Below are positions 62 to 7,387 of a stretch of DNA of 7,513 nucleotides, piece by piece. The notes beneath the pieces are model-generated. The model worked only from the letters and a program-made list of their open reading frames with translations, ran no database searches and was not told the DNA's origin. Source of the stretch: a virus (taxonomy: Duplodnaviria; Heunggongvirae; Uroviricota; Caudoviricetes); IMG/VR virus record IMGVR_UViG_2609460344_000015, positions 1-7,513 of that record. One strand, 5' to 3'. Each line of letters begins with the position of its first letter. Position 1 is the stretch's first letter. The position numbers and the translations under genes are program-made.

Positions 62-163
62 CGTATTGCGGGCTGTTGTCTATCTTCTGCCATTATCCTG
101 TAACTTCCGGACTTCAGCCCGCTCCTCATTTTACTCACAATATTATCCAGGCCGGGAGGATTC

Positions 164-2124
164 ATGGCATTTAAACACTATGACGTGGTCAGGGCGGCGT
201 CGCCGTCAGACCTTGCGGAGCGACTGACACAAAAACTGAAGGAGGGGTGGCAGCCATTTGGCAGTCCGGTGGCCATCACGCCTTATACCCTGATGCAGGC
301 CATTGCGGCGGAAGGTGATGTCACCACACCTGTGGTGGTGAAGCCGTCGGATGGAGAAGGCGCAGTTATCAGCACCACCAGCAACTCGGAGTATTACTTT
401 GTTGTTGCCCTGGCCGGGCAGTCAAACGGTATGGCGTATGGTGAAGGGCTTCCGCTGCCGGAGACATATGACCGTCCGGACCCGCGCATTAAACAGCTGG
501 CGCGTCGCAGCACTGTCACGCCGGGTGGTGCGTCCTGTAACTACAATGACATTATTCCTGCGGACCACTGCCTGCATGATGTTCAGGATTTGAGTAAGTT
601 TTCACACCCGAAAGCCAGCGCAGCTCAGTATGGATGCGTGGGGCAGGGATTACATATCGCGAAGAAATTGTTGCCGTTTATTCCGGCGAATGCCGGTATT
701 CTTCTGGTTCCGTGCTGCCGTGGTGGTTCTGCATTTTTGGCGGGCGATGAAGGTACCTTCAGCGAATCCACCGGCGCAAGCGAGACCTCGGCACGCTGGG
801 GTGTAGATAAGCCACTGTACAAGGACCTGCTTACCCGTACTCAGGCCGCACTGAAGGCTAACCCTAAAAATATTCTGCTTGCAGTGGTCTGGATGCAGGG
901 CGAGTTTGATTTGAAACAGGGTGCATACGCCACTCAGCCGGGGCTGTTTGATTCCATGGTGGAAAAATATCGTTCTGACCTGTCGGAATTCGGAGGTCAG
1001 TGTCTCGGGGGCTCTCCGTCATCGGTTCCCTGGATTTGTGGCGACACGACCTACTACTGGAAGCAGACTTATTCTTCGCAATACGATGCGGTGTATGGTG
1101 CATACAAGACGAAATCCGCAAAAAAAATCTTCTTTGTGCCGTTTAGACGGATGAAAACGGGCGAAATGTGGGTACCAACGAGCCGTCAGAAGATCCGGAT
1201 GTTGCGGATATTGGGTATTACGGAGCCGGTGGTCGAACGGACGCCAAAACCTGGACGACGGCCGACCGTAAAACGCATTTTGGATCATGGGCACGTCGTG
1301 GGATTATTTCCGACCGTCTGGCAACGGCGATTCTTGTGCATGCCGGGAGAACCGCTGAATTCATTACCGGAAAACAGCCTGATACGGTGAAGCCCACCGG
1401 ACCTTCCGGTGAAGGTACGGAGAGAGAGCCGGAAGCCCCGGTCAGTAACCGAACCCTGATGAGTCTGCTGGCGTCCGGCGAAGACCTGGCATCACAGGGC
1501 TGGCGCTATTATCACAAACCGGCGAGCGGAGACAATGTTAACAAAAACATTGCTGAAGCGGTGGTCAGTGATGCGGGGGCTACGGGAGGTAAGGCCCTGC
1601 AACTGAATAAACCGGAAAACCACATCTGGTTTCTGGAGCATGATGCAGCCGGACAGGGAGTGGAGTTACTGAAGAAGGGGGGACGTGTGAGCGTACGGTT
1701 TAAGTTGCCGGGTTCACTGGTGCCGAATCGGTTTGCCCTGGGCATTTACTGGCAGTTGTCGTCCCTGCCGGAGGGAGTGACGCTGGCAGAGGAAGGCAAC
1801 GACATGCTGATGTCCTTCTTCCTGCAGACGGATGCGACGAACCTGAACGCGATGTACCACAAGAAGCCGAATGCGAAGCTGGATACGTTCGGGGTCTTTG
1901 ATAACGGATGGCACACACTGGCTTTTGAGTTTGCCGGAAACAACAGCATTCAGGTGACGCCGGTACTGGATGAGAAACGGGGGACGCCGTTCACACTGGT
2001 GAAATCTCCGGCATCAGGGGCGGCGGACAAACTGCAACTGACAGGCATATCAAAGGCGGCGACATATACGCTGCTGATTGACAGTGTGAAGGTGGAAGTG
2101 AACAACGCGGATGCCGCGGCATGA
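164..2124 (+). pseudogene. nanS-p: Prophage sialate O-acetylesterase (NanS-p / SASA family) split by a single-nucleotide frame break near 1145-1150
   Basis: SD GGGAGGA 153-159, ATG 164. N-terminal ORF (164..1390) contains the GQSN catalytic motif (FVVALAGQSNGMAYGEG) typical of SASA/SGNH esterases. Protein-like translation continues in the frame of ORF 1168..2124, which has TAG at 1144-1146 just upstream, while the 164 frame becomes Arg-rich nonsense until its stop at 1388-1390. The two parts sum to about 650 codons, matching my recollection of about 645 aa for intact prophage NanS-p. Confidence 0.7.
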
Positions 2125-2133
2125 TAAAAAAAG

Positions 2134-2162
2134 CCGCCAGCGGCAGGAACGGAAGCTGGCGG
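2134..2162 (-). terminator. Hairpin oriented as a minus-strand intrinsic terminator just downstream of the esterase stop
   Basis: 8-bp GC-rich stem CCGCCAGC (2134-2141) / GCTGGCGG (2155-2162), 13-nt loop; A7 at 2126-2132 on + gives a U7 tract after the hairpin on the - strand. No U-tract follows on +. Confidence 0.35.
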
Positions 2163-2259
2163 AGGTAATCCCAATGGAGAATGTAAAGAAAAGATGCTTT
2201 CGTATATCGGTTTTTTAAATGAAAGCAGTTCTCATTGTCAACCATAACGGTAAGAAACT

Positions 2260-3043: not shown

Positions 3044-3124
3044 ATGAACCATGAAGAAATGAATCAGCGCTTCAGTCGTCTGGAAAATGAAATTGCTGAA
3101 CTGAATAAAAACTGTCGGCGCTGA
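3044..3124 (+). CDS. 26-codon leader ORF translationally coupled to the downstream moron gene
   Basis: Good SD GGGGAGAG 3031-3038 overlapping the holin stop, ATG 3044; encodes MNHEEMNQRFSRLENEIAELNKNCRR; its TGA (3122-3124) overlaps the ATG (3124-3126) of the next ORF. Confidence 0.3.
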   Translation: MNHEEMNQRFSRLENEIAELNKNCRR

Positions 3125-3600
3125 TGCCTTCTGAAGATGAAAAAAAACGCCGCGATGAGCAGTTTGCTGCGTTTGACGATTATTGTCGGAAAGTGATGAG
3201 CAGAAATCTCGCAGAGTGTTTCAGTATTCATAATGATAATTTCAGTGAGCTGGAATGGGAGTGTAACCGGCCATCCTTTGTTGTATCCGGTGATGCTGGG
3301 AAAATAACCATCTCAGAAAATGGGAAAGTAACACCTCCATCGCACCAGCACAGTGAGGAGCTCATTGAATTTGCCATTGATTACCTGAAGAACAATAAAA
3401 AGCAGGGGCTGATGAAGCGCGTTGGCCGTTGCATGGGATATCTTCAGGTAGCCGCTGAGATTGAAGCGCTGGCCAGTGGTGCTGATAAGGATGCAATTGT
3501 GCGGGAGGCTCTTCTTCGTGATTTTAATACTCCACCCTTTAAAAAAGTGCCGGCTTACTGGCTTCATCCGGGGCTGACTTATCTTAAAGTGCGTATTTAG
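3124..3600 (+). CDS. Hypothetical protein (158 aa), moron between holin and endolysin
   Basis: Uninterrupted ORF, no own SD (appears coupled to the leader ORF), no predicted membrane helix by eye, visibly lower GC than flanking lysis genes. Function unknown to me. Confidence 0.6.
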   Translation: MPSEDEKKRRDEQFAAFDDYCRKVMSRNLAECFSIHNDNFSELEWECNRPSFVVSGDAGKITISENGKVTPPSHQHSEELIEFAIDYLKNNKKQGLMKRVGRCMGYLQVAAEIEALASGADKDAIVREALLRDFNTPPFKKVPAYWLHPGLTYLKVRI

Positions 3601-4724: not shown

Positions 4725-4811
4725 ATGAGTGCTGAACTTATTCGGGCAATGGCATTTGCCATTCGTATTGTGGCCATTGCTGTTCTGGTCTGGGCAATCC
4801 GTTGGTGGTGA
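4725..4811 (+). CDS. Small hydrophobic peptide P4 (28 aa), paralogue of P3
   Basis: ATG 4725; [28 protein letters not shown]; stop TGA 4809-4811 lies 1 nt before the Rz ATG 4813. SD weak. Confidence 0.3.
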
Positions 4812-4812
4812 T

Positions 4813-5280
4813 ATGAACCGTGTTCTGTGTGTGGTGATTATTGTCCTGCTGGTAGCCTGTGGTGTGCTTAGTCTGGGGCTGAATCATTACCGCGATAACG
4901 CCATCACCTACAAAGCGCAGCGCGATAAAAAAGTCAGTGAGCTGAAACTGGCGAATGCCACTATTACTGATATGCAGCAGCGCCAGCGCGATGTTGCTGC
5001 GCTCGATGCAAAATACTCGAGGGAATTAGCCGATGCGAGAGCTGAAAATGAAACTCTGCGTGCTGATGTTGCCGCTGGTCGTAAGCGCCTGCGGGTCAAC
5101 GCCACCTGCCCCGGTACCGTGCGTGAAGCCACCGGCACCTCCAGCGTGGATAATGCAACCGGCCCCCGACTGGCAGACACCGCTGAACGGGATTATTTCA
5201 TCCTCAGAGAACGGTTGATGACAATGCAGAAGCAGCTGGAAGGGGCGCAGGAATATATCCGCACTCAGTGCCTGAAATAA
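4813..5280 (+). CDS. Rz: Rz i-spanin (inner-membrane spanin subunit)
   Basis: 155 aa; N-terminal TM helix then [16 protein letters not shown]...[16 protein letters not shown]...[24 protein letters not shown], closely matching lambda Rz as I recall it. Listed ORF 4729..5280 is an upstream GTG extension; ATG 4813 gives the lambda-like N-terminus. Confidence 0.9.
5033..5218 (+). CDS. Rz1: Rz1 o-spanin (outer-membrane lipoprotein spanin), embedded in the +1 frame of Rz
   Basis: 61 aa; lipoprotein signal with lipobox LVVSAC, Pro-rich mature part [32 protein letters not shown] matching lambda Rz1 as I recall it; entirely inside Rz. Confidence 0.85.
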
Positions 5281-5322
5281 GTTTTGTTGATGCGCCGTAT
5301 CGTCGCTGTATTCCCTCATTAA

Positions 5323-6227
<905 letters not shown>

Positions 6228-6234
6228 GGAGGTC

Positions 6235-6843
6235 ATGGTGGATAAGGGAAAAGAGATTATTGCAGTACGAAATGCAGCCTGCAACGAATACGGCGGGATA
6301 AACTGTGAGGTGCAGTTTGAAGATGCGGTCAATGAAAAAGGAGAGCAGGTATGGCTGCCGTATACCGCAACGGAAACGGATAATACAGAACACGGAAAAG
6401 CCTTGTGGTCGGGGCTGACAGCAGGAACATACGGAAGTGTGAGTGCCTTTGTTGCCACGGAAGCAATACTGGAAGCGGCAAAGGCGGCGAAAAGGGAAGA
6501 GATTAATATCTGGCGTGATGTGCAGGAGAATATGGAATACGTGATGGAATTCAACGGAAGGAACTGGGATTACGGCAAGAAGACGTTGTCCAGGATAAGC
6601 ACGACACGACTGATGGCAGAGAACAACCGTCTTCCGGAAGGGTTTGCCTGGACGGACGGGGATAATAATGTGGTGCCGGTAACGGCGGCGGAGATAATTG
6701 CGCTGGCAGATGCGACAGAGCAGGCGATGTTTGCGAAAGGTGTGGAGATTAATACACGTCAGCTTCAGATGAAAGCAGAGGTTGAGGCGCTGACAGAGCT
6801 GAAGGCGATCCGCAGTTATGTTGTCGGATGGCCTGCAAGCTGA
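6235..6843 (+). CDS. tfa: Tail fibre assembly protein (Tfa / Caudovirales tail-fibre chaperone family)
   Basis: 202 aa, immediately downstream of the tail-fibre gene; SD AGGAGG 6227-6232 overlaps the upstream stop (spacing to ATG 6235 is short, GTG 6238 is an alternative). Contains LPEGFAWTDG, resembling the LPENFTWLSPGG motif of lambda Tfa as I recall it, and a C-terminal ...VVGWPAS like the EWP ending of Tfa proteins. Confidence 0.65.
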   Translation: MVDKGKEIIAVRNAACNEYGGINCEVQFEDAVNEKGEQVWLPYTATETDNTEHGKALWSGLTAGTYGSVSAFVATEAILEAAKAAKREEINIWRDVQENMEYVMEFNGRNWDYGKKTLSRISTTRLMAENNRLPEGFAWTDGDNNVVPVTAAEIIALADATEQAMFAKGVEINTRQLQMKAEVEALTELKAIRSYVVGWPAS

Positions 6844-6987: not shown

Positions 6988-7317
6988 TCAGATTTTGGGA
7001 AATCCATATTTTTCCCGTGCGCGGTTACATGCTTCATTCGCGATGCCATTTTCGCCGGACATTGCGAATTCCCTGCATGTGGACGGACGGTTTTTGTAAA
7101 CAGAGCAATATGCGTTTTCACCGGGGGGGCCGGCCAGAGCGACACATCGGGGATTTTTCTGATTGGTGCCGCGCATACAGCGATGAAAAGGAGATATTTG
7201 CTCAGTGAGACTGACCGGGACGTTTCCGCCAGCATCATCGGCTTCAGCCCAGTAAAAAGAGACGCGGAAAAATGCACAACAGGCACCACACGTCATGCAT
7301 GGATTCGGATTGTTCAT
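6988..7317 (-). CDS. ykgJ: YkgJ-family cysteine-cluster protein (CxxCxxCC putative zinc/iron-chelating domain), chromosomal
   Basis: Minus-strand ORF; from the internal Met the product [31 protein letters not shown]... is 109 aa with the CxxCGxCC signature. The 19-codon upstream extension to ATG 7374 ([13 protein letters not shown]...) is encoded by a U-rich hairpin and looks non-coding. No clear SD at 7317, so the start is not certain. Confidence 0.7.
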
Positions 7318-7334
7318 TTTTATACTATTTGTTG

Positions 7335-7370
7335 TTTTTTCAGCGATCAGATAAAAGGGCGCTGAAAAAA
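7335..7370 (-). promoter_or_regulatory. Hairpin in the probable 5' UTR of the ykgJ-like gene
   Basis: 11-bp inverted repeat TTTTTTCAGCG (7335-7345) / CGCTGAAAAAA (7360-7370) with 14-nt loop, 18-53 nt upstream of the chosen start on the - strand. Confidence 0.3.
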
Positions 7371-7387
7371 ACATTCTCCAAAATTAG

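Follow-up and report, generated by a model that had tools for sequence, protein, structure and literature searches.

Chromosomal NanS (YjhS) is a 9-O-acetyl N-acetylneuraminic acid esterase whose structure has been solved (PDB 3pt5). The part of PMC9063846 that cites Rangarajan et al. 2011 describes it as an SGNH type II hydrolase with Ser19 and His301 as the catalytically active residues. Its phage-borne relative vb_24B_21 (gp84), from the Stx phage phi24B, is an intact, virion-associated protein of three domains, the C-terminal one of which is represented by PDB 6yp6. DUF1737 has been reported as the capsid-binding module of the phi24B protein, and according to a cryo-EM preprint the N-terminal, catalytic and C-terminal domains of the native protein are separated by cleavage (bioRxiv 10.64898/2026.04.10.717836). 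Reviews count seven or more active NanS-p enzymes in strain EDL933 (PMC8065619), and where the same article cites Saile 2018 the five NanS-p esterases of O104:H4 C227-11φcu are given as active. Functional nanS-p counts of this kind serve to predict growth on the 9-O-acetylated sialic acids of mucin. The closest counterpart of the gene studied here is WP_000874454.1, a 653-aa enzyme encoded in lambdoid prophages of O104:H4 and strain cM8a. Broken members of the family are known as well; in ATCC 25922, ExPEC XM and Ec15103, copies at the same prophage position carry one-base frameshifts and have been flagged as pseudogenes by NCBI PGAP.

The DNA analysed here, referred to as the window, is the full 7513-bp GenBank contig JNRD01000120.1 of assembly GCA_000704505.1, to which it is identical over its whole length. 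Its nanS-p gene (164-2124, + strand) is broken into two reading frames, and we put the probability at about 93% that it is a genuine loss-of-function allele of the prophage gene for 9-O-acetyl sialic acid esterase, caused by the deletion of one T in codon 328. The first reading frame (ORF1) runs on the + strand from ATG 164, which is preceded by GGGAGG, to 1390 and encodes 408 aa. Its native portion, the 5' part of nanS-p (164..1145, +), comprises codons 1-327 and the first base of codon 328, and is identical to WP_000874454.1 up to residue 327 except for P75S. Encoded here are the DUF1737 capsid-binding domain (residues 3-50; 170-313, +; PF08410, E = 6.9e-16) and, counted from its N-terminal end, about 80% of the SGNH/SASA esterase fold; the SASA domain (PF03629) is recognized in ORF1 with E = 1.8e-9. 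The GQSN motif, which the sequence-only reading had assigned to the frame of position 164, is found there at residues 85-88 (416-427, +), with the nucleophile Ser87 at 422-424. From 1146 to 1390 (+), ORF1 continues out of frame through 81 missense residues (RRMKTGEMWV...NSLIR) to the TGA at 1388-1390. The 3' part of nanS-p (1147..2124, +) lies in the shifted frame and comprises codons 329-653 and the stop codon. This frame is open over 1147-2124, and its long ORF begins at GTG 1168. The final 60 or so residues of the esterase fold are encoded here, among them the catalytic His372 (CAT at 1276-1278, +), together with a linker and, at about 1669-2010 (+), the lectin-like domain; DUF6645 (PF20350) is recognized in the 1147-2124 frame with E = 4.7e-44. 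Both ORFs strongly match parts of one protein, which bears out the earlier suggestion of a split NanS-p-type esterase.

The closest matches to window positions 100-2200 (2101 bases) in complete E. coli genomes are 2102 bases long and 99.8-99.9% identical, with a single 'SASA family carbohydrate esterase' as their annotation. Strain cM8a and O104:H4 2009EL-2071, both encoding the 653-aa WP_000874454.1, were taken as the intact reference alleles. Alignment to intact alleles, which the sequence-only reading had proposed as a means of locating a missing base, did locate it: the sole indel in the gene relative to either reference is a T absent between window positions 1145 and 1146. The sequence is CCG TTT ATG ACG GAT in the intact alleles and CCG TTT A-G ACG GAT in the window. 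In the intact gene, this T is the second base of the Met328 codon ATG (CDS position 983); it is flanked by A and G, with no homopolymer at the site. Apart from the deletion, window 100-2200 departs from cM8a at just two positions: 386 (T, against C in cM8a), which gives Ser75 where cM8a has Pro75, and 487 (C, against T in cM8a). Reinsertion of the T yields a 653-aa ORF that is identical to WP_000874454.1 at 652 of 653 residues, P75S being the only substitution. As judged from the alignment, repair of the full ORF by a single indel is far beyond what chance would be expected to produce, and a disruption that one base repairs relative to intact orthologues is the pattern of a frameshift pseudogene.

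The deletion turned TTTATGACG into TTTAGACG and thereby made a TAG at 1144..1146 (+) in the downstream frame (TTT ATG to TT TAG). This TAG, in the frame of the 1168-2124 ORF, had been noticed before, and it had been concluded that the switch of frame must occur at or after 1147. Position 1147 is indeed the point at which the downstream frame opens. The mutation itself, however, lies at 1145^1146, 1-2 nt upstream of that bound, because the TAG is itself a product of the deletion. The same reading had excluded the A8 tract (1120..1127, +; CDS 957-964) as the shift site, correctly, as the tract has its wild-type length in the window. The G6 tract (1677..1682, +; CDS 1515-1520) is also of wild-type length.

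Inactivation and an indel error had been left as the two explanations of the break. If the indel were an artefact of sequencing or assembly, the real gene of the strain would be intact; the sequence comes from a short contig (7513 bp) of a draft assembly, one-base indels are a common artefact in draft assemblies, and no complete genome has the deletion. An exact-sequence look-up, on the other hand, found the 408-aa ORF1 product on five contigs. Three belong to NCBI isolate assemblies (GCA_000704465.1, GCA_000704485.1 and GCA_000704505.1), which have consecutive accessions and may be related isolates of one study, and two to ENA metagenome assemblies (ERZ27275984 and ERZ28581214). The identical deletion is accompanied in five of five assemblies by the same two linked SNPs, giving the haplotype ΔT983 + C223T + T324C, and the two metagenome contigs and the GCA_000704485.1 contig show 0-1 mismatches to the window over about 2.5-2.8 kb. 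Moreover, the lost T lies outside any homopolymer, whereas the nearby error-prone A8 tract is of normal length. With one haplotype shared by separate assemblies, in a context that does not favour indel errors, an error is very unlikely, and ΔT can be regarded as a real inherited allele. Of the two earlier explanations, it is thus inactivation that stands.

The frequency of the allele was assessed with a 60-bp query across the site, which matched at 352 places spread over 260 of the 5426 complete E. coli genomes, with 98.4% identity throughout. All of them carry the extra base, so that the deletion occurs at 0 of 352 places. A metagenome-contig collection gave 38 matches to the intact junction and 0 to the deleted one; the GTDB representative genomes, which contain neither of the two, are uninformative here. 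The ΔT allele is, on these counts, rare and apparently confined to one lineage or one mobile segment. Homologues with the same two-ORF structure, which the sequence-only reading had named as evidence against a broken gene, do exist in the formal sense, but solely as copies of this same allele. Since the two-ORF form is confined to such copies, and the 260 genomes and 38 metagenome contigs are undeleted, an inherited mutation is indicated rather than a conserved two-gene design. One of these copies, on the GCA_000704465.1 contig (JNRB01000114.1, 61-9411; locus L003), has an identical ΔT allele and matches the window exactly up to window position 2880. Beyond this point it diverges within the holin gene and continues into another lysis module (92-94% identical), an HNH endonuclease gene and terminase, and at the contig end a short TerL fragment abuts a gpJ-like ORF. 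In L003, the ΔT allele thus occupies a second mosaic backbone, which also looks deleted.

The consequence for the enzyme can be read from the repaired protein. NanS/YjhS (PDB 3pt5) is matched over its full length by residues 73-391 (E = 1.4e-118), and the 'NanS-p' C-terminal domain of PDB 6yp6 by residues 464-648 (9.5e-61). In the 3pt5 alignment, GQS87N stands opposite the GQSN of NanS, and His372, in ADRKTHF, stands opposite the His at chain position 312. Counted from the printed alignment, chain position 30 is the nucleophile Ser19, so position 312 is His301. The end-to-end alignment with the solved NanS structure places the break inside the esterase fold. At codon 328, it falls between Ser87, encoded in the first frame, and His372, encoded in the second; the catalytic Ser and His that a NanS-p carries on one polypeptide are therefore not joined in the window copy.

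Translation from ATG 164 would yield 327 native residues followed by the missense tail. Such a product would keep DUF1737 and the nucleophile Ser87, but the end of the SGNH fold, where the general-base His372 lies, would be missing. His372 and the lectin-like C-terminal domain remain in the downstream frame, which has neither the native start nor Ser87 nor an obvious ribosome-binding site. As neither polypeptide could form the Ser-His active site, the esterase activity of the window copy is predicted, from the missing His block, to be lost. The 3' part is presumably not expressed, and selection on the gene has presumably been relaxed. The sequence shows no damage to either DUF1737 or the C-terminal lectin-like domain, and together with the reported cleavage of the phi24B protein this leaves a small possibility that the fragments might retain some non-enzymatic function. 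With only two further substitutions relative to the intact allele, the ΔT allele is young. The deletion would represent one step of ordinary prophage decay, in a remnant without terminase, head and tail genes, and the loss would be tolerated because E. coli genomes with this gene family usually hold several copies. Genomes with nanS-p-like DNA have it at a median of 4 places. With several nanS-p copies per genome, the loss of one is probably cheap.

Restoration of the full-length esterase by programmed recoding, either -1 ribosomal frameshifting or transcriptional slippage on A8, was also considered. The break follows the A8 run at a distance of 18 nt, one A added to the mRNA there would, by reasoning from the sequence, shift ribosomes into the downstream frame, and the rare Arg codons AGA and CGG come after the break. 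Rescue by slippage at A8 was nevertheless rejected: the TAG at 1144-1146 closes the target frame, and translation would terminate six codons on. A -1 ribosomal frameshift was rejected too, as no X XXY YYZ heptamer is present at 1139-1150 and a -1 slip on TTT (1142-1144) would read the same TAG next. Neither a slippery site leading into an open downstream frame nor its conservation in homologues was found. The junction is undeleted in 260 of 260 complete genomes (352 places) and in 38 of 38 metagenome contigs that have the segment, and the deletion is rare and recent, unlike a conserved recoding site. The TAG, the lack of a heptamer and the undeleted junction in every other copy examined rule out a conserved recoding site, and recoding as a whole is hardly credible.

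A different proposal would have the gene split into two functional products, with ORF1 providing a DUF1737 capsid decoration and a 245-aa product, re-initiated from GTG 1387, serving as a free lectin-like carbohydrate-binding domain. The stop codon TGA of ORF1 (1388-1390) overlaps the GTG at 1387-1389 of the downstream frame in a GTGA (1387..1390, +), and the gene callers of the two ENA metagenome assemblies began a 245-aa gene at this GTG, which may be a possible point of re-initiation. The undamaged terminal domains and the reported cleavage of gp84 into separate domains would also fit such a division. However, no evident Shine-Dalgarno sequence precedes GTG 1168, GTG 1387 or ATG 1459, and the prophage has no capsid genes whose product DUF1737 could decorate. 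The allele is also rare, and with just two substitutions separating it from the intact gene, selection has had no time to become visible; other copies are broken at quite different places, as random decay predicts. We consider this division of labour very improbable, and simple loss of function remains the preferred reading. An Rfam scan of the window gave no match, and a promoter and terminator scan of the window gave nothing above shuffle expectation that bears on the nanS-p split.

The other broken copies show where this allele family tends to fail. In ATCC 25922, G7 replaces G6 at CDS 1515-1520, and the gene (DR76_RS19760) is flagged 'frameshifted' by NCBI PGAP. In searches of complete genomes with 87-nt queries, the G7 form was found in 17 records, mostly re-sequenced ATCC 25922, and the A7 form of the A8 tract in three genomes, T309.Ta3, Ec15103 and FCI17. 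Both tracts are altered within one gene in Ec15103 (N2O69_RS13015; A7 + G5, PGAP 'frameshifted') and, as A7 + G7, in T309.Ta3 and locus L044. ExPEC XM (CXG97_RS02925) has a further, different frameshift and is likewise flagged 'frameshifted' by PGAP. Length variants of A8 and G6 (A7; G5 and G7) were noted for loci L010, L027, L044, L035, L008 and L049. The full gene is held by 26 of the 38 metagenome contigs with an intact junction, and 7 of these 26 copies have a frameshift (three with A7, two with ΔA163 and two with ΔG97), although some low-coverage metagenome indels may be errors. A8 and G6 can therefore be described, from the tract lengths in these copies, as recurrent frameshift hot spots of the allele family, though neither is the lesion in the window. 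The product name 'DUF6645 domain-containing protein' had been tried as a marker of pseudogenes and proved wrong, as an intact 656-aa protein of HS13-1 bears the name; the pseudogene count accordingly includes only entries flagged 'frameshifted'.

A joint reading of these observations would make the allele family a contingency locus, in which slipped-strand mispairing at A8 and G6 turns the esterase off and possibly on again. ΔT would then be an irreversible, 'locked-off' form, and the DUF1737 and lectin-like modules would perhaps be made separately by way of the GTGA at 1387-1390. This scheme is speculative, and we think it improbable. About a quarter of the full-length metagenomic copies being frameshifted, often at A8 or G6, is a modest population-genetic observation and does not call for a new mechanism; it suggests that any one nanS-p copy is dispensable, probably through redundancy.

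Set against the described systems, the window copy is, by architecture, homology and position, best classed as a pseudogene of the NanS-p family and not as a functional member. After repair of the T, it has the same sequence as WP_000874454.1 at all but one residue, the DNA differs at two positions, and the loci encoding that protein have the same neighbours as the window, namely DUF1378, DUF826, class II holin, lysozyme and Rz genes downstream. The window copy departs from it in lacking T983, with a truncated and partly missense product of 408 aa in place of the 653-aa enzyme, and in P75S. Chromosomal NanS shares the whole fold, the GQSN motif and the catalytic His; it has neither the N-terminal DUF1737 nor the C-terminal lectin-like domain, and in the window the catalytic codons stand in different frames. 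The three-domain architecture is that of gp84, but the two belong to different allele groups; in a phage collection, the top matches over the whole gene come mostly from Stx phages and have about 75% DNA identity. Unlike gp84, the window copy is frameshifted and lies in a prophage without capsid genes. The pseudogenes of ATCC 25922, ExPEC XM and Ec15103 belong to the same family as the window copy and share its prophage position and the one-base nature of the lesion. Their frames are broken by a G6 tract changed to G7 or G5, by an A8 tract shortened to A7, or at another site, in contrast to the non-homopolymer ΔT in codon 328 of the window. The finding is an ordinary one of a kind already known, such pseudogenes being flagged routinely by PGAP. 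The correct annotation is one frameshifted nanS-p pseudogene and not a 'SASA esterase' beside a 'DUF6645 protein', and the window copy should be left out of functional nanS-p counts.

The surroundings of the gene are those expected of a NanS-p locus, which occupies the late lambdoid region between the Q/tRNA region and the lysis cassette. In two near-identical loci (L001 and L002), the antiterminator gene Q and tRNA-Ile/Arg/Arg precede the gene; this upstream part lies outside the window. Genes for DUF1378, DUF826, class II holin, lysozyme and Rz follow on its 3' side. Beyond Rz, no terminase is found, unlike in the intact relatives. The post-lysis intergenic DNA (5290-5373) gives way to 109 bp from the 3' part of gpJ (5373-5481), a fragment with about 85% identity to gpJ of strain ZH48. 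Next come the 3' part of stf, the side tail fibre gene (5483-6233), a tail-fibre assembly gene (6235-6843) and, on the - strand, a gene for a YkgJ-family cysteine-cluster protein (6988-7374). In complete genomes, the ykgJ-family gene lies between the prophage end and potB, which places the prophage at the potB-side integration site. The window lacks terminase, lom, the head genes and the 5' part of stf, as well as most of the tail genes. None of the complete E. coli genomes has the junctions between Rz, the gpJ fragment and the stf fragment, which reflect either a heavily deleted prophage remnant or a mis-join in the draft assembly. If the contig is correctly assembled, the remnant would lack all head genes and most tail genes, in keeping with the decay of nanS-p.

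Some minor features of the contig may be added. About 100 nt 5' of the nanS-p start, a terminator-like hairpin at 39-63 is followed by a T-run (CTGCGCAATAGCGCGG CCTTTTTCGT); by consensus match, it may be a late-operon terminator read through by Q antitermination. A collagen-like Gly-X-Y repeat in the stf fragment (5556-5956; a 45-bp unit in 8.9 copies, 91% matches) yields long spurious ORFs at 5431-6171 (+), 5026-6045 (-) and 5486-5887 (-). The Rz spanin gene (PF03245) occupies 4729-5280, and an ORF for an Rz1-like lipoprotein (5033-5218) is embedded in it in another frame, the classical nested arrangement. The interval between holin and lysozyme (3124-3600) is occupied in the window by a 158-aa ORF for which no Pfam hit is recorded; the matching slot is filled by a YdfR-family gene in L001 and L002 and by a 330-aa DUF1327 gene in L003. 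Judged from these loci, this interval looks like a variable cargo slot in the lysis cassette.
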